Source of the DNA: Escherichia phage UPEC03
DNA: 64,000 nucleotides
Direction: 5' to 3' (one strand)
Sequence record: MW250785
Shown here: positions 3,334 to 62,396 of the stretch, piece by piece
Numbering within the stretch: the first letter of the stretch is position 1
How the letters are laid out: every line of letters begins with the position of its first letter
Program-made: the position numbers and the translations under genes
Notes under the pieces: model-generated
Database searches by the model: none
The model's input: the letters and a program-made list of their open reading frames with translations, nothing else
What the model was told of the DNA's origin: nothing

Positions 3334-3616
3334 TTGTCGCGTCGTAAACAAGTATAAAGGTAGCTGGGATGTCGATATTCAGAGAGGTACGAAATTCGGC
3401 AATCCCTTCTACAAGGGAACACGGGCTGAAAACATAATGAACTTCATCCCGTATTTCCAAAACTTGATTCGAACTGGCGTGATCACAATCGACGAACTGA
3501 AAGCATTGGACGGGAAGCGGTTAGGATGTACATGCAAACCTCTACCGTGCCACGGTGATTATATTGCTCACTGCGTCAATGTGTTGACCGGAAAGGTGAA
3601 TAAGTTGGATATATAA
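3305..3616 (+). CDS. hypothetical protein
   Basis: ORF overlapping nrdB stop; internal ATG at 3305 chosen over track start 3269; no motif recognised. Confidence 0.45.
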   Translation: MQNGDKNTLDCRVVNKYKGSWDVDIQRGTKFGNPFYKGTRAENIMNFIPYFQNLIRTGVITIDELKALDGKRLGCTCKPLPCHGDYIAHCVNVLTGKVNKLDI

Positions 3617-4014
3617 TGGACGATGTAACATTTGGTGTAATATTTCCTTTGCGTCTGGGTTCAGACAAGAGGATAGACCGGAGTTTCGTTAAATGTGGCG
3701 AATTCCGGCATTGTGTGTATTTTATTGAAATTGACGGTCGGATAGTGTATGTTGGAAAATGTCGTGATTTGTGGAAGCGGTTAGACACATACCGCAATTC
3801 GAAATACTGGCGGGAAGCAAACCCCAGTAATATTCTGAAAACCGCACGTCTGGAAATGGCAATCAAAAAACGTAAGCGTGTAAATCTTATCGTGACAACA
3901 CACGATGAAGACACATATCATGATTTTGAAATAAACATGATCCGAAAAATCAATCCTGAATGGAACAAACAGCACTATGACAAAGCTAACCAAAAATCAG
4001 AAAACCCTCTTTGA
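3616..4014 (+). CDS. denA: endonuclease II-like GIY-YIG nuclease
   Basis: 132 aa; GIY-YIG-like core VYFIEIDGRIVYVGKCRDLWKRLDTYR and C-terminal INPEWNKQH resemble T4 DenA as recalled; sits between nrdB and rnlA as in T4. Confidence 0.7.
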   Translation: MDDVTFGVIFPLRLGSDKRIDRSFVKCGEFRHCVYFIEIDGRIVYVGKCRDLWKRLDTYRNSKYWREANPSNILKTARLEMAIKKRKRVNLIVTTHDEDTYHDFEINMIRKINPEWNKQHYDKANQKSENPL

Positions 4015-5134
4015 CCAGTTGATGAAACTGTGTAACGAAAGCGAATGCTTCTACTTCATTGATCAAAAAACTGTGATGCAAACCAATGTTCGCATCTTTA
4101 ACTATCGCATGGCGAGCTATTCCGACTGGTTAAAACCTGGTGCGCTGGAATGTCGCGGCATCATGTTTGTAATGGATGGGGATACCCCCGTAAAACTCGC
4201 CAGTCGCCCTATGGAGAAGTTTTTCAACTATGCCGAGGTAAAGGCATGGGAAGCGCTGAAAGCCTCTCCTGTGACGATTGGTGAAACCGTAGTGGATGTG
4301 ATGATTAAGGAAGATGGTTCCCTGATCTCCACCTTCTGTGATTCCGGCTATCTGGGCGTTAAGTCTAAAGCATCCGTTCAATCTGAACAGGCTATGGACG
4401 CTATGAGCGTGATCCAGACTAACCGCGCATTGTTCGACCGCCTGACCGAACTGGTTAACGATGGTTTCACAGTCAACATGGAATACGTCGCACCGACAAA
4501 CCGTATTGTAATTGGCTATCAGGAACCAGCAGTGGTGATCCTGAACATCCGTAATAACGACACGGGCGAATATGTCGATTATCAGGATATCTTCGCAGAT
4601 GGTGTATTACGTCCGTTCCTGGTTGAGCGCGAGAAAATCGAAATCACCGATCTGGATGCGTTCATTACCGAAGCCTACACGAAAGAAGGTTTCGAGGGTT
4701 ACGTGATCAAAACTGATAAAGGTTTTGTGAAAGCGAAAACCAACTGGTATGTAAACCTTCACCGCACTAAGGATAGCATCAACAATAATAAGGATCTGTT
4801 CTTAAATATTGTTGAAAATACCGTCGATGACCTGAAACAAATGTTCCTCGATGATATGTACGCACTCAAGAAGATCGACGCGTTCGAAACGTTATTCCTT
4901 GATAGTCTGAATCGTCTGACTGCAAAAGCATTCCAGGCAATCGAAGACACGAAAGGCAAATCACGCAAAGATTACGCGATCGCCCTGAGCGCTGACTTAA
5001 CCCCTGACGGTCGTATTATCTTCGGGCCTATGATGCGTTATTTCGATGATACCGATAAGCAAAAGCTGGTCGATAACATCGTTGCATTAATGGCGAAGAA
5101 CTACGAACAGTTTATACCGGAAGAATATAAATGA
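3977..5134 (+). CDS. rnlA: RNA ligase 1
   Basis: 385 aa; strong resemblance to T4 Rnl1 as recalled (ALECRGIMF, lysine-adenylation motif IKEDGSL, IEGYV). Confidence 0.85.
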   Translation: MTKLTKNQKTLFDQLMKLCNESECFYFIDQKTVMQTNVRIFNYRMASYSDWLKPGALECRGIMFVMDGDTPVKLASRPMEKFFNYAEVKAWEALKASPVTIGETVVDVMIKEDGSLISTFCDSGYLGVKSKASVQSEQAMDAMSVIQTNRALFDRLTELVNDGFTVNMEYVAPTNRIVIGYQEPAVVILNIRNNDTGEYVDYQDIFADGVLRPFLVEREKIEITDLDAFITEAYTKEGFEGYVIKTDKGFVKAKTNWYVNLHRTKDSINNNKDLFLNIVENTVDDLKQMFLDDMYALKKIDAFETLFLDSLNRLTAKAFQAIEDTKGKSRKDYAIALSADLTPDGRIIFGPMMRYFDDTDKQKLVDNIVALMAKNYEQFIPEEYK

Positions 5135-58089: not shown

Positions 58090-58758
58090 TTACACTCTTA
58101 AAAGATTGAATACATTAAGCACGTTGCGTTTCAAATCGTCTAACGTACCATTATTTAGGATTGTATAATCACTCAAGCCAGGTGTCAAACCTTTCTCCGT
58201 TGAATGATTATCTTCAATACCAGTTTCACGTTCAAGGAACACAAAGCGAGTCCCGAACTTGCTCAGGTATTTATATTCGTGCGGTTGACGCACATCGGTA
58301 ATGATAAAGTGATCCGCGTAGGATTTCAACATTTTTTGAAGCGCAATTGAAGTCCAGATAGACGGATCTACTTTACAAACAATATCAGTCCCGAACACCT
58401 GCATCAAACGGCGAATCGTCCAGGGCTGGGTGTTTTCTTCGCAAATTTTATGAGCGATAACATCTGCGTTACTCATGAAGAACCCGCGAGAACTTAATTT
58501 TTTGATACCGCTAGAAAACAGCGTGTATGCATCGTTATTGGACATCACCAGCGGGGCTTCACGATCACCCTCATAGAATGGGTTCTTCGCTGCCAGCGCT
58601 CGCAATTGCGTGTTATCGTGATGTTCCATAGAACGTTTCAGGATAGCTTTGATTTCGTCGGCTAACGCGATAACTTCAACATTGCGGAAGTTATGCACAA
58701 CCATTTGAGCAACGGTATCTTTACCCGTTCGCTTTTTACCACAAATACCATAAATCAT
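58090..58758 (-). CDS. 1: deoxynucleoside monophosphate kinase
   Basis: P-loop GICGKKRTGKDT; segment WTIRRLMQVFGTDIV resembles T4 gp1 as recalled. Confidence 0.8.
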   Translation of the reverse strand: MIYGICGKKRTGKDTVAQMVVHNFRNVEVIALADEIKAILKRSMEHHDNTQLRALAAKNPFYEGDREAPLVMSNNDAYTLFSSGIKKLSSRGFFMSNADVIAHKICEENTQPWTIRRLMQVFGTDIVCKVDPSIWTSIALQKMLKSYADHFIITDVRQPHEYKYLSKFGTRFVFLERETGIEDNHSTEKGLTPGLSDYTILNNGTLDDLKRNVLNVFNLLRV

Positions 58759-59306
58759 TTTTGCGTTTTCCGTGGAGTAGGCACGATCACCCGTCCGTCG
58801 ATCTCAATTTCCATGTGAGCGAAGTTGAACATCGTCATACAGGATACGGCTTCATCCGAATCATTGGTATACATAAGCTCAAGCTCTCCGAGGTTGGAGG
58901 GCCAAGCGCCATAGAAGCGAAATGTCGCTACAGTTTTTGACTGCGAGTTATCCAGGATATGCAAAGCCATTGCCTGTTGTGGTTCACTCCAACGCACGGA
59001 ATCGAAGGTGTTAAAATCGACAGTACCGAGCATCCAAAGGTAAACCCCAAGATACGATCGCAGTTCTTCATCAACAGCAAAACGAATAGTCAGTGGATCG
59101 AACTCCATTGCAGATCCTGGGATCTTCCCTCGAATCATTGGGTTCAGTGGGACATCCGTAATTGGAATGTTGATAGAAGGTAGTGTAACACCCTGAACTT
59201 GTAGTTTCAACCCTTTTACATAATCATTGTCAGGAATATCTAACATGAAGTTAGTAGGTGAAATCTGGTTCAGGATCATAGCAGTTGTATTCATGATGAT
59301 CTCCAT
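58755..59306 (-). CDS. 3: tail completion / sheath stabiliser protein (gp3-like), by synteny
   Basis: 183-aa ORF immediately upstream of gene 1 (T4 order 3-1-57A-57B); preceded by a TATAAATA motif. Confidence 0.5.
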   Translation of the reverse strand: MEIIMNTTAMILNQISPTNFMLDIPDNDYVKGLKLQVQGVTLPSINIPITDVPLNPMIRGKIPGSAMEFDPLTIRFAVDEELRSYLGVYLWMLGTVDFNTFDSVRWSEPQQAMALHILDNSQSKTVATFRFYGAWPSNLGELELMYTNDSDEAVSCMTMFNFAHMEIEIDGRVIVPTPRKTQK

Positions 59307-59387
59307 TTTATAGATATTTAGATCAAGACCGTGAGCGAAGCGAACACACGAACGAAGTGAGTGTTATGTACGATGTACTGTTTATAA

Positions 59388-59395
59388 TATTTATA
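59388..59395 (-). promoter_or_regulatory. T4-type late promoter core TATAAATA
   Basis: exact TATAAATA on the minus strand about 80 nt upstream of the gp3-like start, inside an AT-rich core flanked by inverted GC-rich repeats. Confidence 0.45.
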
Positions 59396-59562
59396 TTTTA
59401 TATATAGAGAAAACAGTACATTTCCGTATACTTTTTATACAATCGTTAACTATCCGTCTTCGCTTCGCTTGACGGAACTCGCTTCGCTCGCGATCTAATT
59501 TTTAGTTGATCTATTCAATAAATAGGTATATCATACCTATACTTTCAAAAGAGATTGAAAAC

Positions 59563-60348
59563 ATGAAATCATTCAAAGAACTACTTTCTGAATCTGTTCA
59601 GAACAAAAAATTTGCTAAGACCGTTGATCTGGTTGACCGTGGTAACGCTGCAAAAGGTCAGATCGGTTTCCTGCATTTTGCACATGGTGCTGATTACGAT
59701 GTGTATGCGCCGGACTCCCACGATCTCGCTTACTTCGGTAAAGGTGTTGTCCGCCTGAAAGGTAAAACCACTGGTAAGACTCAGGCAGCGTATATTGACT
59801 GGGCGAAAGGCACTGTTTCATTCTACAGCGGTGATCCTGCTGACGATCTGAAATTTGACAAGCCACTGAAATTCAAAGGCGCTTCCCTGTACAAAGAAGC
59901 CGAAGAAAACCTGGATCTGTACAATCAGTTGGCGGAAGATTTCGAGATTGATCTGCCTCTGGATGAAGCATTGGTGAAAGGAAAGGTGTACAAGCTCCCA
60001 AGTAACGATATGTGCTTGCTGTATACCGGACGTACCAAAACCAAAGAAACAGGTGAATACGCCGTGTTTACGGTTGTAGATGCCTCTGGTAAGCCTCGTC
60101 TGGTATCGGGTAAACGCTTTACCCAGGAATACAAAGGTGATGTTCTGTCTAAACTGGTTCTAGCTGAATCAGAAGATTTGAACGAAGCCGCTAAAGATAT
60201 TCGCGAAAAAGTTATTGCGGTGTTGGTGAAACGTGGGTTTAACGAAAAAGACGCAGAAAAGATGGTTGATAAAAACCTGAAAGATGCGATGAAGGTTCGA
60301 CCTGGCGCAACCCCTGGCAAACTCGCGGAAATCGTGAGTATCCTGTAA
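59563..60348 (+). CDS. putative internal (capsid-packaged) protein with capsid-targeting-like N-terminus
   Basis: N-terminus MKSFKELLSE resembles the T4 internal-protein targeting sequence MKTYQEFIAE; start taken at ATG 59563 (RBS gagattgaaaac), not track start 59506. Confidence 0.45.
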   Translation: MKSFKELLSESVQNKKFAKTVDLVDRGNAAKGQIGFLHFAHGADYDVYAPDSHDLAYFGKGVVRLKGKTTGKTQAAYIDWAKGTVSFYSGDPADDLKFDKPLKFKGASLYKEAEENLDLYNQLAEDFEIDLPLDEALVKGKVYKLPSNDMCLLYTGRTKTKETGEYAVFTVVDASGKPRLVSGKRFTQEYKGDVLSKLVLAESEDLNEAAKDIREKVIAVLVKRGFNEKDAEKMVDKNLKDAMKVRPGATPGKLAEIVSIL

Positions 60349-60354
60349 AAATAA

Positions 60355-60383
60355 AGCCCCTTCCTTTCGGTTGGGGCTTTTTT
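60355..60383. terminator. bidirectional terminator
   Basis: agcccc...ggggct hairpin followed by ttttt, between convergent genes. Confidence 0.55.
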
Positions 60384-60384
60384 G

Positions 60385-61239
60385 TTAATATCTGTTCCAA
60401 ACTTTCTTCGCGCTGTATGGTTTTCCTTTGGACTGGAAAGCCTGTGTAGGCAACCAAACTGCTTTCGCCCAATCTTTTGGGGCGATCTCTGCAAGTGGTG
60501 AACGTAGATGGGCTGGCAGATAGGCTTTGATCATTTGATCAGCCCCGCGCATTCCCTTCACGTTGTTCCAGTTGATTTTCAGTCTGGTTTTGTTAGAAAG
60601 TCGATCTGTTGATCCGTAGCCACGTTTCAGGAGTTCTTCTAAAAACTCTTGACGTGCTCGCGGTGGCGCATAGTGCAAGTTCAGCCCGTAAAGAACCAAG
60701 TTACCCGCTTTCGAACGTCCTGAACCCAGGAAAATGATCAGCGGGAACCGATCCCAGTATGGCAGGGTGTCTTTGTATTTCGCATCGTAGATGAACGTAT
60801 ACAAACGACCCGTTGCTGGTTTCGCAACCCTGTGCGTCTTAATGCTGGTTTTGATGAAATCACCAAACCAATCGGTCGAATCTTTCTGACGTTTCGCAGC
60901 GGTTACACCAACAGTCATTTTCTTCAAACTGTTGCGGAAATCGTTTACGATATCAACCGCGTGTTTTTTGCGATAATCATTACGTTTGCGTCGGGCTTCG
61001 GTTTCTGCTTTACGGCGTTCGATTTCATCATCAATCTGCTGCTTATAGCGGTGCATAGACTTTGTGAACGTTGCGTATGCAATCCCGTTTTCGTCCGCGA
61101 ACTTTTTGGCTGTCATGCCTTTTAATTTTGCGCGTCGGAATTTGATACCAAGTTCAACCCATTCACCCAGCTTTCGCTTCGGTGGTGGTTTTGGCTTGTC
61201 TTCTTCTGCGATGATCTCGAACTCAAAAATAAAACTCAT
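60385..61239 (-). CDS. 2: DNA end-protector protein (gp2-like), by synteny
   Basis: 284-aa basic ORF between the gp4-like and gp3-like genes; size matches T4 gp2. Confidence 0.5.
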   Translation of the reverse strand: MSFIFEFEIIAEEDKPKPPPKRKLGEWVELGIKFRRAKLKGMTAKKFADENGIAYATFTKSMHRYKQQIDDEIERRKAETEARRKRNDYRKKHAVDIVNDFRNSLKKMTVGVTAAKRQKDSTDWFGDFIKTSIKTHRVAKPATGRLYTFIYDAKYKDTLPYWDRFPLIIFLGSGRSKAGNLVLYGLNLHYAPPRARQEFLEELLKRGYGSTDRLSNKTRLKINWNNVKGMRGADQMIKAYLPAHLRSPLAEIAPKDWAKAVWLPTQAFQSKGKPYSAKKVWNRY

Positions 61240-61260: not shown

Positions 61261-61728
61261 TTATTGCCCTTTCCATCCGAACACACGTTTCAATGTGTCC
61301 TCTGTGATGATCTTGAACTCCCAGCCCTTTTGTTTTGCTGCTGCATTCGCGGCTTTCCATTTGTCAATGTTTACTGCATACGTATACAGTGCATCAACGA
61401 ATTTCTTTTTGTTGTGAACGTTGTTGTTCGCTGGCTTAGGTGGGGGCAACGTTTCTTTCATCGGTTTGACTTCCCAAAGGTAGGTCACTCCATTATCCAT
61501 TTCGACATAGAAATCCATGAAGTAACGCCGTCGCTTTCCGTCTGCGTTGCTGAAATAAGGGATCACAACGCATTCTGAATTCCACCTCTTTACGTGGGGA
61601 TTTCGGTCTAACCAATTCATTATATATTTTTCCCATGAAGAACGATATGTTATTTTTCTGGGATCTCCTTTATACTTTTCTATCTGTTGTGGCATAAAGG
61701 AACCTTTGTATGTCTGTCTTCCAGTCAT
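61261..61728 (-). CDS. 4: head completion protein (gp4-like), by synteny
   Basis: 155-aa ORF upstream of the gp2-like gene; size matches T4 gp4. Confidence 0.5.
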   Translation of the reverse strand: MTGRQTYKGSFMPQQIEKYKGDPRKITYRSSWEKYIMNWLDRNPHVKRWNSECVVIPYFSNADGKRRRYFMDFYVEMDNGVTYLWEVKPMKETLPPPKPANNNVHNKKKFVDALYTYAVNIDKWKAANAAAKQKGWEFKIITEDTLKRVFGWKGQ

Positions 61729-62396
61729 TATTTCACCTTACAATTATCAAAATGCCACCTATACATTGCTCTGGGGTTTCCTTCTTTTCCGCAATGTGGA
61801 CATATTACAGGTTTCGTGTTTTTAGCTGAGTCGCGCATCTTTTGTTTTGCTTCTTCGCTAATAATTCTTCCTGTTAACGAAGCGCTAAGGTTATCTCTAT
61901 GCTCTTTAGAACGGTTTGACGCAACTCTACTCATTTTTTGTTTGAATTCATCACTTCTCTTTATTCCGGTCATCCCTTCGGAAATACTTTTCTTGTGTGC
62001 TTCTGATAGCGGTTTCCCTTTTATTGATTCTCGTCTTTTTCGTTTCCAATCATCGCTACGTGGTGGGTGTTTAGTCCCTATAGAATTGATTCGATTTTGT
62101 TCGGCTACTTTCTCTCTGATCCATCCGTAAGTTCGAGAAGTCATTCTTCCAGAATGAAATCTTGATGCCATTGACATCATCTTACACGCGTATATAAGTT
62201 TTCCGTTTGTTGGGTACATTTTGACGAGTAGTTGATGGGCGAGATAGTGTTCTTCGGCAGTGAGACAAACGATATTTTCGGGTTCGTCCATTCCTCCCAT
62301 ACACCGAGGGATGATGTGATGGTTTTCTGAATACCCGCTTATAGTTCTTGATTGTGCTCTTTTGATAAGAAGTTCATAGTGTTTGCGGTAATTCAT
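61728..62396 (-). CDS. HNH homing endonuclease (Mob-like family)
   Basis: HNH motif ENHHIIPRCMGGMDEPENIVCLTAEEHYLAH; C-terminal CPHCG; paralogous to ORF 33162..33920; sits between genes 4 and 53. Confidence 0.7.
   Translation of the reverse strand: MNYRKHYELLIKRAQSRTISGYSENHHIIPRCMGGMDEPENIVCLTAEEHYLAHQLLVKMYPTNGKLIYACKMMSMASRFHSGRMTSRTYGWIREKVAEQNRINSIGTKHPPRSDDWKRKRRESIKGKPLSEAHKKSISEGMTGIKRSDEFKQKMSRVASNRSKEHRDNLSASLTGRIISEEAKQKMRDSAKNTKPVICPHCGKEGNPRAMYRWHFDNCKVK

Follow-up and report, generated by a model that had tools for sequence, protein, structure and literature searches.

Gene order between genes 3 and 2

The window analyzed here is a 64-kb stretch (64,000 nucleotides) of Escherichia phage UPEC03 (sequence record MW250785), a T4-like Pseudotevenvirus of the RB43 group. 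Annotations were taken over from phages that are 99% identical; the related genome leB (178 kb) is 98.6% identical. Between genes 3 and 2 lie a palindromic element, promoter motifs, a plus-strand ORF, and a terminator (Table 1). The initial annotation had described this ORF, its start MKSFKELLSE, and its position between the two genes. The reading frame was found as described, and the position was confirmed by PHROG matches and by the annotation of the 99%-identical phages. In T4, genes 3 and 2 are adjacent with no gene between them, and ipI stands in the equivalent block, in the order ipI-57B-57A-1-3-2-4. The ORF is transcribed divergently from gene 3. Translation of gene 3 probably begins in reality at the ATG at 59294, behind the Shine-Dalgarno sequence GGAG at 59305-59302. 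The intrinsic terminator downstream is common to the ORF and gene 2, and KP15 and KP27 have a terminator annotated on each strand at the equivalent place. The palindromic element occurs in three copies per genome: copy A between gene 3 and the ORF, copy B between rnh and gene 55, and copy C between gene 24 and uvsY.

Table 1. Positions of genes and sequence features around the gene 3-gene 2 junction (window coordinates; a slash within a peptide marks a putative cut)
Feature	Position	Strand	Evidence or composition
Gene 3, tail completion protein / head-proximal tip of tail tube	58755..59306	-	phrog_45 (5.8e-42); annotation of 99%-identical phages
Three-copy palindromic element (~170 bp), copy A	59326..59498	.	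Left arm, A/T core hairpin, right arm
Left arm	59333..59364	+	Two 11-mers of the form GARCGAAGYGA
Core hairpin/cruciform	59373..59421	.	ATGTACTGTTT (59373-59383), 27-nt A/T-rich loop, AAACAGTACAT (59411-59421)
Exact TATAAATA	59395..59388	-	In core hairpin loop, inside the 26-nt A/T run
Right arm	59454..59490	+	Hairpin CCGTC-TTCGCTTCGCT-(T)GACGG (59454-59475), then CTCGCTTCGCTCG (59478-59490)
Sigma-70-like promoter for the ORF	59506..59534	+	TTGATC, 17 nt, TATCAT; promoter scan
Late-type promoter core AATAAATA	59517-59524	+	Ends 38 nt before the ATG
ORF, 261 aa, putative capsid-targeted internal protein	59563..60348	+	phrog_7322; ATG 59563, stop 60346-60348
CTS-like propeptide, codons 1-10, MKSFKELLSE	59563..59592	+	L-S-E/S, putative prohead protease site
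Conserved N-terminal domain, residues ~20-125	59620..59937	+	Invariant H38, H41, D44, D51, H53, D54, YFGK..VRLKG
Swappable C-terminal helical module, 48 aa	60193..60336	+	phrog_9411
Bidirectional intrinsic terminator, common to the ORF and gene 2	60354..60385	both	AAGCCCC, 12-nt loop, GGGGCTT, T run
Gene 2, DNA end protector	60385..61239	-	phrog_429 (2.6e-72)

Conservation and modular build of the ORF product

RB43ORF200w and KP15_152 are homologs of the ORF. Pseudotevenvirus, Slopekvirus, Yersinia phage JC221, and Pantoea phage Phynn all have the gene between genes 3 and 2. Comparison of the junction among relatives showed that the ORF and the element are both conserved in Pseudotevenvirus and JC221, and that copy A of the element is also present in Phynn. 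The gene had been ascribed to a hyperplastic insertion. That view is contradicted by the whole RB43 group, Slopekvirus, JC221, and Phynn among them, in which the gene occupies this position; judged from its distribution, it is an old conserved gene of the group and no recent insertion. An alternative TTG start at 59506 (280 aa) was dropped because every homolog begins at the methionine of MK.FKE.

The full product is a near-neutral protein of 29 kDa (pI 7.7). Without residues 1-10 it has a mass of 27.7 kDa and a pI of 7.65, and is thus neither small nor highly basic; its only basic parts are the putative sub-fragments 136-202 and 209-261. The conserved N-terminal domain has a fold without known relative, and the same domain occurs without a capsid-targeting sequence (CTS) in gp193 of Aeromonas phage CC2. 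The C-terminal module is preceded by two L-x-E sites, VLAE/S and DLNE/A. Alignment of the homologs showed that this module is exchanged between relatives, as expected for arms-race cargo, and modules of the phrog_9411 type also stand behind CTS-like peptides elsewhere (P0026, MLTFNEFLNE/A). Pfam, NCBIfam, and PHROGs gave no function for the ORF. A search of 1.8 billion representative proteins returned 24 relatives, none of them annotated, and the T4 internal proteins (IPs) are related to the ORF product neither in sequence nor in fold.

Promoters upstream of the ORF

The ORF would be expressed from the late-type promoter AATAAATA, which lies within the sigma-70-like promoter. The same octamer precedes genes 23, 2, 49, and gp232 in leB, and JC221 carries an exact TATAAATA at the equivalent position. 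The sigma-70-like promoter upstream of the ORF suggests that the product may also be made early; it is conserved in JC221 and Phynn. Behind the element, copies B (TTGAAA-17-TATAAT) and C (TTGACT-17-TATAAT) have an equivalent sigma-70-like layout.

The initial annotation had placed a late-promoter core on the minus strand. An exact TATAAATA is indeed present there, and the leB genome as a whole has only 10 such matches. Among the three copies of the element it is found in A and C only, being absent from copy B and from JC221 and Phynn, and in copy C it is directed into the 3' end of gene 24. This minus-strand octamer is probably a by-product of the A/T run, and the promoter reading was abandoned.

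Capsid-targeting-like N-terminus

The proposed likeness of the N-terminus to the CTS of T4 internal proteins was strengthened. Scored by BLOSUM against the T4 CTS MKTYQEFIAE, MKSFKELLSE was the top match among the 725 ATG-started ORFs of the window and the 2078 of leB (score 28; next best 24), and it is close to MKTFKEFTS, the start of T4 IPI. Most of the 17 aligned homologs keep the pattern MK-x-F-K-E-[LFMY]-[LI]-x-E, with F4, K5, and E10 invariant (17/17), L, F, M, or Y at position 7, and L or I at position 8. Distant relatives keep the tag as MKNFKEFMTE or MKQFKQFLSE. The decapeptide is conserved while residues 11-30 vary, and residues 1-13 have a pLDDT below 50 in the structure model. The propeptide ends in a gp21-type motif, L8-S9-E10/S11. 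For the T4 CTS, the sequence and residue roles of which have been reported (PMC8442874, PMC9026906), residues 4 and 7 matter for targeting and residues 8 and 10 for processing (PMC9026906). The corresponding residues of the ORF product match the T4 genetics and are kept in all homologs. The protease and the scaffolding core are encoded by this phage type, with gp21, gp22, gp67, and gp68 annotated in leB outside the region of the 64-kb window; gp23 has the expected gp21 site FLAE/A at residues 63-65.

On the best reading of these data, the ORF product is an internal protein that is targeted to the prohead, processed by the protease, and equipped with swappable C-terminal modules. It would enter the prohead core by means of its T4-type N-terminal CTS, be cut by the gp21 prohead protease after Glu10 and possibly also at the inter-module L-x-E sites, and then travel in the head and be ejected along with the DNA. 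The sequences themselves show a conserved tag, a promoter motif, and a modular build; packaging, cleavage, and ejection are what we infer from them. T4 IPs resemble the ORF product in having an aromatic residue at position 4, a hydrophobic residue at position 7, and L/I-x-E at positions 8-10, followed by an unrelated, variable remainder, and their genes resemble the ORF in the ipI-type neighborhood and the late-type promoter. They differ in being basic proteins of 8-20 kDa without homology to the 29-kDa, near-neutral ORF product, which is multi-domain with extra L-x-E sites between its modules, is encoded divergently from gene 3, and has its packaging and cleavage predicted from sequence.

It is possible, though we find it doubtful, that the CTS likeness is coincidental or reflects a translation-initiation preference, and that the ORF encodes an ordinary non-virion protein, for example one that has a metal-binding domain and acts at early or middle times in host takeover or DNA metabolism. 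The cluster of invariant His and Asp residues is suggestive of an enzyme, and the conserved sigma-70-like promoter, the larger and less basic product compared with T4 IPs, and the CTS-free N-domain of CC2 gp193 would all suit such a protein. UvsW.1, another small protein, also starts with MKSF; therefore, the CTS-like tag is less exclusive than it looks. However, a non-virion role fits poorly with a decapeptide that is kept ahead of variable residues 11-30, with the retention of the processing residues L/I8 and E10, with an N-terminus that is the best of 2078 and close to the start of IPI, and with a late-type promoter motif common to the ORF and gene 23.

An unrelated zeta-toxin-like P-loop protein of the same genome starts with MKSFKDFTSLDE/A. 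At the start, 19 of 20 nt are alike between its gene and the ORF, and TCAATAAATA upstream is common to both. If the internal-protein reading of the ORF is true, T4-style capsid targeting, so far documented for T-even phages, would extend to the RB43 and Slopekvirus groups, which hold many Klebsiella, Enterobacter, and Cronobacter therapy candidates, and at least two candidate injected proteins would be named, the modular ORF product and the zeta-toxin-like kinase.

In the literature, no virion proteomics was found for RB43-, KP15-, Pseudotevenvirus-, or Slopekvirus-type phages. The one T4-like Klebsiella proteome found is that of a Jiaodavirus, a different genus.

Anatomy of the palindromic element

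One direct and two inverted copies of the 10-mer AGCGAAGCGA had been noted upstream of the ORF. They are present as exact matches at 59334-59343 (+), 59460-59469 (-), and 59479-59488 (-), shifted by 1-2 nt from the approximate coordinates given earlier. Only one further exact copy occurs in the 64-kb window. When up to one mismatch was allowed, 14 matches were obtained against 4.0 ± 2.0 expected, a number reached in 0 of 100 shuffles. The inverted repeats extend to 18-nt arms (59326-59343 and 59479-59496; 89% complementary), which enclose a second stem of 11 bp formed by the two halves of the core hairpin. Folded as single-stranded DNA, the element scored z = -5.5 (plus strand) and -4.5 (minus strand) relative to shuffled sequences.

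The two 11-mers of the left arm, GAGCGAAGCGA (59333-59343) and GAACGAAGTGA (59350-59360), are both GAA-loop mini-hairpin motifs on the plus strand and are nearly invariant in 13 copies; GAACGAAGTGA is enclosed by the stem CACAC/GTGT (59345-59349 and 59361-59364). The right arm is the complement of the left-arm motifs, and therefore its GAA loops are on the minus strand. Orthologous right-arm hairpins have other stems (CCGGC-TTC-GCCGG, AGCGC-TTC-GCGCT, AACGC-TTC-GCGTT, and ATGACC-TTC-GGTCAT). The core contains a pure A/T run of 26 nt at 59381-59406.

Distribution and covariation of the element

The element was found at 194 places in 65 records, about three per record. The three-locus placement holds in all Pseudotevenvirus records and in JC221, and no presence/absence polymorphism was seen; in Phynn, only copy A was located. 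The repeats had been taken to mark the edge of an insertion and to be a possible recombination site. They are instead the arms of a three-copy element at conserved loci, and the fixed three loci and the lack of polymorphism largely refute the recombination idea. A scan of IMG/VR with a 16-mer gave mostly chance matches, and longer patterns were needed for an informative result.

Each locus has its own arms, which are conserved among orthologous copies. In leB, the two further copies, B and C, were found with 86-89% identity. The core stem exists in three lineage-specific versions, each fully complementary, and the version is identical among the three copies of one genome (core sequence ATGTACTG in the leB type, AACTACAT in the RB43 type). 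RNAalifold independently returned six pairs with changes on both sides; compensatory pairs in the left arm are at alignment columns 26/45 (AU:6, UA:6) and 33/39. The orientation of the element relative to the rightward gene is alike in copies A, B, and C, a sigma-70-like promoter follows the element within 10-30 nt in all three, and copies A and B lie between divergent genes. At the three equivalent loci, Slopekvirus KP15 carries a different element that is 75-82% AT and GATC-rich. Enrichment in GATC, as in oriC, is true of the Slopekvirus elements and not of the Pseudotevenvirus ones.

Duplex stability and likeness to replication origins

No duplex of 40, 60, or 100 bp in the 64-kb window is less stable than that of the core. 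In the 178-kb leB genome, the cores of the three copies rank first to third for instability among 40- and 60-bp duplexes, and A/T runs of at least 20 nt occur only there. The KP15 elements are again the least stable DNA within the ~102 kb of that genome examined. As a control, the annotated origins of T4 were ranked in the same respect and were not the least stable sites (oriF, top 1-2%; oriE, 5-11%; oriG, 8-44%); therefore, instability alone does not predict an origin.

To our knowledge, replication origins have been mapped only in T4. Copy C flanks uvsY on its 5' side, the place annotated as oriF in T4. Copy B adjoins rnh; T4 oriG is inside gene 34, 2.2 kb from rnh, and the neighbor differs. 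Copy A is at the gene 3-gene 2 junction, and the syntenic T4 oriE is 3.3 kb away, inside gene 5. T4 oriE, oriF, and oriG lie near strand-switch regions and comprise a promoter and an AT-rich unwinding element (PMC3016281). Like oriF and oriG, the element measures about 100-170 bp, contains an AT-rich, easily melted segment, lies at or near strand-switch regions, and is one of several origin-like sites per genome. Several differences were also evident. The AT-rich segment of oriF is downstream of the promoter, whereas the A/T core of the element is upstream of the rightward promoter, which is the only consensus promoter by the element and is directed away from the core. No MotA-type (TGCTT-type) box was apparent by eye in the element, only GCTTCG repeats, and no MotA-type promoter was recognized, unlike in oriF and oriG, where a MotA-dependent middle promoter reads into the unwinding element. 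The hairpin-forming GC-rich arms and the co-varying stem have no T4 counterpart. There is homology among the three copies of the element but little sequence in common among T4 origins.

The GCGAAGC/CCGAAGG-type loops of the element resemble the GNA mini-hairpin initiation signals of the phage G4 origin, RSF1010 ssiA/ssiB, and the N4 hairpin promoters, and the ssiA/ssiB pair of RSF1010 oriV likewise has its hairpins on opposite strands, with an AT-rich region between them. The likeness goes no further than resemblance. The element, unlike those systems, belongs to a double-stranded DNA, T4-like phage with its own gp61 primase. We know of no dedicated hairpin-recognizing primase or RNA polymerase in the RB43 group. 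GCGNAGC mini-hairpins recur in replication origins, and GAA triloops are exceptionally stable in DNA (PMC13037366).

By analogy with the T4 origins, the element is most likely a DNA unwinding or replication-initiation site, a role that is plausible but unproven. It would act at the DNA level: the 26-nt A/T core, the easiest site of the genome to melt, would be exposed in the loop of the co-varying stem, and the GAA-loop mini-hairpin motifs 5' of the core on each strand could hold the melted state open. We lean slightly towards accepting jointly that the ORF encodes a CTS-loaded, gp21-cut internal protein and that the element is an unwinding or replication-initiation site. More tentatively, and with considerable doubt, we suggest that the three homologous palindromic elements may be the replication origins of RB43-type phages, with the core stem read by a lineage-specific factor, the GNA mini-hairpins stabilizing the open state or directing outward priming, and the Slopekviruses having replaced the sequence and kept the sites.

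We count the element as mattering more than the ORF. If it is an origin, no conserved origin family of the T4 superfamily would have been defined by sequence before it. A three-copy element with compensatory changes at origin-like places makes T4-like replication start testable in another lineage, and it is a natural case of GNA mini-hairpin motifs placed symmetrically around an unwinding tract.

Alternative roles of the element

A site for a lineage-specific DNA-binding protein is a close rival to the origin reading, although as a specific proposal we consider it rather unlikely: the element would be a shared transcriptional control site through which a phage or host protein co-regulates the ORF, gene 55, and uvsY, and that protein would recognize the core inverted repeat, the 11-mer arm repeats, or both. 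The uniform orientation and the nearby promoter in all three copies favor such a site. A stem that is lineage-specific yet identical within a genome is expected if it co-evolves with a trans-acting factor, and the arm motif also occurs close to gene 55, in the interval between it and uvsW, in distant T4-like contigs with a gp55 only 28% identical. On the other hand, 27-43 nt separate the half-sites, a long distance for a simple dimer operator; L151 and L152 have the element in inverted orientation relative to gene 55; and no common regulation of the three genes is obvious. The analysis yielded no candidate for the binding protein, and a control site leaves the lowest stability in the genome, that of the core, unexplained.

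Action as RNA, in the form of a structured leader, a processing or stability element, or a small RNA, is improbable. The RNAalifold consensus fold would agree with it, as would the core stem of JC221, to which T·G (U·G) wobbles add further pairs, though on the plus strand alone. However, Rfam holds no family for the element. In copies A and B, both flanked by divergent genes, no promoter is so placed that its transcript would span the element from end to end. The mirror symmetry of the motifs between the strands is an argument for DNA, as is the stability of GAA triloops in DNA (PMC13037366).

A selfish, MITE-like mobile repeat or a recombination cassette marking plastic regions is very improbable and largely refuted: terminal inverted repeats, multiple intergenic copies, a neighboring ORF with a swapped C-terminal module, and GAGCGAAGCGAG pairs beside a resolvase in unrelated contigs speak for it, but there are three copies in nearly every record at fixed loci across Pseudotevenvirus and JC221, with locus-specific, orthologously conserved arms, core genes and not hyperplastic regions as neighbors, and no presence/absence polymorphism seen. 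The MITE and PeSL readings, as well as that of a terminator, were dropped because the copy number is fixed and copies A and B lie between divergent genes. PeSL (promoter-early stem-loop) cassettes, reportedly described in RB49/phi1 by Arbiol et al. in 2010, are said to be numerous, to lie in hyperplastic regions, and to act as terminators that promote shuffling. The element shares with them an intergenic stem-loop and a sigma-70-like promoter repeated in a T4-type genome; unlike them, it is present in three fixed copies by core genes, and its stem-loop is not terminator-like.

A conserved gene at the gene 3/gene 2 junction

The region 59000-60700 is 98-99.4% identical to Pseudotevenvirus phages of Cronobacter, Enterobacter, Citrobacter, and Klebsiella, and the window is assigned to Pseudotevenvirus (RB43 group, T4-like phages). 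T4 itself has the order ipI-57B-57A-1-3-2-4-53-5, and its genes 3 and 2 are a mere 106 nt apart. Relative to this order, a plus-strand gene (hereafter the ORF) does break the run, and its position and N-terminus are as initially annotated (see the table). The comparison of the junction among relatives proposed in the initial annotation was run, and the ORF lies at the same place throughout the RB43 group: in Pseudotevenvirus (RB43ORF200w), Slopekvirus (KP15_152, KP27_206), Pantoea phage Phynn, and Yersinia phage JC221. Protein identity among these homologs goes down to about 66%. Given this conservation, the idea of a hyperplastic insertion was abandoned, and we regard the ORF as an old RB43-group gene, not recently inserted.

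Coordinates of the ORF, its neighbors, and copy A of the upstream element
Feature	Coordinates	Strand	Description
ORF	59563..60348 (ATG 59563, stop 60346-60348)	+	261 aa, N-terminus MKSFKELLSE
Gene 3	58755..59306	-	phrog_45
Gene 2	60385..61239	-	phrog_429
Copy A, left arm	59333-59343, 59350-59360	+	11-mers GARCGAAGYGA, the second inside a CACAC/GTGT stem
Copy A, core	59373-59383 / 59411-59421		11-bp stem ATGTACTGTTT/AAACAGTACAT, 27-nt loop
Copy A, right arm	59454-59490		CCGTC-TTCGCTTCGCT-(T)GACGG, then CTCGCTTCGCTCG; complement of the left-arm motifs

The ORF family is phrog_7322, annotated as function unknown, and Pfam and NCBIfam searches with the protein gave no match. An alignment of 17 homologs divided the protein into a decapeptide, a linker, an N-domain, a middle domain, and a C-terminal module. 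The decapeptide is conserved and the linker after it is variable. The domain at residues ~20-125 is conserved, with invariant H38, H41, D44, D51, H53, and D54. The AlphaFold model was moderate (pLDDT 67.6; about 80 for the N-domain). After a junction of the form L-(V/T)-L-(A/V)-E-(S/A)-(E/Q), each homolog carries one of several mutually unrelated C-terminal modules. The window-type module (residues 211-258, phrog_9411) is absent from the RB43 homolog, and is also found as a separate 53-aa gene elsewhere in the genome.

A candidate capsid-targeting tag

The T4 capsid-targeting sequence (CTS) is MKTYQEFIAE (PMC8442874). By T4 genetics, residues 4 and 7 serve targeting and residues 8 and 10 processing (PMC9026906). 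The ORF has F4, L7, L8, and E10. All 17 aligned homologs have F4, K5, and E10; position 7 varies among L, F, M, and Y, and position 8 between L and I. Distant relatives from a search of 1.8 billion proteins retain the pattern (MKNFKEFMTE, MKNFKEYLNE, MKQFKQFLSE). Scored against the T4 CTS, the ORF N-terminus came out on top both in the window (725 ORFs starting with ATG) and in leB, a related phage genome of 178 kb (2078 such ORFs). The T4 internal protein IPI, as translated in this analysis, starts with MKTFKEFTS, which is nearer to the ORF decapeptide than the CTS is. Different cargos sharing one tag are the hallmark of T4 internal proteins (PMC3012670). The phrog_9411-type module also stands behind CTS-like peptides in metagenomic proteins (MLTFNEFLNE/A, MKFRELLNE/K).

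A zeta-toxin-like P-loop protein (PF06414, 4e-8) encoded outside the window, leB gp232 (contig L004, 41792-42625, minus strand), starts with MKSFKDFTSLDE/A, nearly identical to the IPI start. Its counterpart in the Slopekvirus KP15, KP15_200 (contig L009, 14857-15696, minus strand), starts with MKSFKQFTESTLTE/A. gp232 is unrelated to the ORF, yet 19 of 20 start nucleotides are shared, and TCAATAAATA lies upstream of both. gp232 is another candidate for capsid targeting.

The initial internal-protein reading was strengthened by the CTS match, the conservation of the tag, the second tagged protein, the prohead protease and core genes encoded in leB, and a gp23 with the expected LAE/A site. T4 internal proteins are small and basic, whereas the ORF protein is 29 kDa with a pI of 7.7. 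A literature search for a virion proteome of the RB43-type group found none. The ORF product is a candidate capsid-targeted internal protein, a reading that we hold, jointly with an unwinding or origin role for the upstream element, to be somewhat probable.

A structured element in three copies

Exact copies of the 10-mer AGCGAAGCGA stand at 59334-59343 (plus strand), 59460-59469, and 59479-59488 (both minus strand), which confirms the one direct and two inverted repeats initially annotated, with coordinates shifted by 1-2 nt. Only one further exact copy occurs in 64 kb; allowing up to one mismatch gives 14 matches, where 4.0 +/- 2.0 would be expected. BLAST against leB revealed two more copies of 59332-59487: copy B between rnh and gene 55 (86% over 160 nt) and copy C between gene 24 and uvsY (89% over 111 nt). 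The window holds copy A only. The element is present in 65 records of the phage collection, at about three places per record; JC221 has all three copies at the same loci, and Phynn has copy A between gene 3 and the ORF. The repeats are conserved in relatives, as arms of a three-copy element at fixed loci; their reading as the edge of an insertion was not supported.

Because the right arm complements the left, the GAA-loop motifs are on the plus strand on the left and on the minus strand on the right. As single-stranded DNA, the copy A region folds far better than shuffles on both strands (z = -5.5, -4.5). An Rfam search of the element region gave no match. The core stem has three versions, each fully complementary: ATGTACTGTTT/AAACAGTACAT (leB type), AACTACAT/ATGTAGTT (RB43, RB16, Lw1), and ATGTCCAC/GTGGACAT (JC221, Phynn). 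In the core loop, the TATA-AGA-AAA part is invariant and the remainder, TATATTTTATATATAGAGAAAA, nearly so. GAA/TTC loops are kept on differing arm stems (CCGACC-GAA-GGTCGG, CCGGC-TTC-GCCGG, AGCGC-TTC-GCGCT, AACGC-TTC-GCGTT, ATGACC-TTC-GGTCAT). In an independent RNAalifold run on a MAFFT alignment, the predicted fold comprised long-range pairing of the arms, the core stem, and the second left hairpin; six of its pairs are changed on both sides. These covariations suggest that the structure is under selection. The arms are specific to a locus and kept between species, and the core stem, specific to a genome, is identical in its three copies. Either gene conversion or co-evolution with a trans-acting factor could account for this pattern.

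In distant T4-like metagenomic contigs, the arm motif GAGCGAAGCGA-N3-5-CACGAACGAAGTGAGTG recurs in the interval from uvsW to gene 55, exact in L026 (4743-4775) and as a close variant in L151 (~4100-4300) and L152 (~3500-3700). The gp55 proteins of L026 and leB share only 28% identity. In these contigs the element center is different and more promoter-like, and the element is inverted in L151 and L152. Separately, GAGCGAAGCGAG pairs, with TTC-loop hairpins further along, were seen in the non-T4 contigs L148, L149 (2706-2731), and L150; the L149 pair is near a resolvase and a KAP-family NTPase.

Promoters

Since exact TATAAATA occurs only 10 times in the whole leB genome, and AATAAATA or CATAAATA lies upstream of many late genes including gene 23 (leB, L002-L005), the late-promoter core of the RB43 group appears to be nATAAATA. 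The octamer at 59517-59524 is a credible putative late promoter of the ORF because AATAAATA precedes genes 23, 2, and 49, the zeta-like gene, and the ORF in leB. JC221 has exact TATAAATA at the matching position. The octamer sits inside a conserved sigma-70-like promoter (TTGATC-17-TATCAT), so early synthesis of the ORF is also possible.

The exact minus-strand TATAAATA noted near the repeats is present at 59395..59388, within the loop of the core hairpin. Its initial interpretation as a late-promoter core did not hold: copy B and the JC221 and Phynn copies do not have it, and the one in copy C is directed into the end of gene 24. The likeliest reading is a by-product of the A/T run rather than a promoter of gene 3. 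In JC221 a separate TATAAATA stands between the element and the gene 3 start codon.

Possible function of the element

The repeats are best described as belonging to a DNA element that is conserved, structured, and present in three copies, with a possible role in replication initiation. In leB, pure A/T runs of at least 20 nt occur only in the three element cores, and among its duplex windows of 40 and 60 bp these cores rank as the three least stable. The least stable segment of the window is 59373-59440. KP15 lacks the element's sequence; a different repeated element (75-82% AT, GATC-rich) occupies precisely the three element loci, far less stable than any other DNA in the ~102 kb of KP15 examined. 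A T4 origin pairs a promoter with an AT-rich unwinding element, and strand-switch regions lie near oriE, oriF, and oriG (PMC3016281). T4 annotation puts oriF at the uvsY start; the distance from oriG to rnh is 2.2 kb, and from oriE to the gene 3/2 junction 3.3 kb. In DNA, GCGNAGC mini-hairpins have exceptional stability, and they are found repeatedly at replication origins, G4 and RSF1010 ssiA among them (PMC13037366). Because of the instability, the KP15 loci, the makeup and positions of T4 origins, and the mini-hairpins together, an unwinding or origin site is the most attractive reading. We infer this role and go no further, since a T4 control showed that the annotated origins are not T4's least stable windows, reading the element by eye revealed no MotA-type promoter, the core is upstream of the rightward promoter and not downstream as in oriF, and strict synteny with T4 origins holds for copy C only. 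A protein-binding control site common to the three rightward genes is to be taken seriously as an alternative, if a less probable one. A mobile element, PeSL-type cassette, or terminator is unlikely because the element keeps a fixed copy number at fixed positions and because divergent genes flank copies A and B.

Other features

The annotated KP15_152 start is MTHLKKFKEF (contig L006, 2492-2510). Because its Leu codon TTG aligns with the Met of all other homologs, the true start may be this TTG, giving M-KKFKEFLTE/G. The leB protein UvsW.1 (76 aa; L004 36689-36919, minus strand) also has a CTS-like start, MKSFTTFVNE/A; either the tag may be in wider use or MKSF starts may simply be common in leB. 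The terminator hairpin after the ORF (60354-60389) is 94% identical over 36 nt to leB 136657-136692, adjoining UvsW.1, and is read as a repeated terminator cassette. Gene 3 probably starts at ATG 59294, 12 nt downstream of the annotated ATG (59306); a GGAG Shine-Dalgarno lies 6 nt before ATG 59294. A 222-aa homing endonuclease (61728..62396, minus strand; phrog_655, 8e-63) lies between genes 4 and 53. The close relatives leB and PF-CE2 have a gap of only ~76 nt here, so the endonuclease is an insertion polymorphism.
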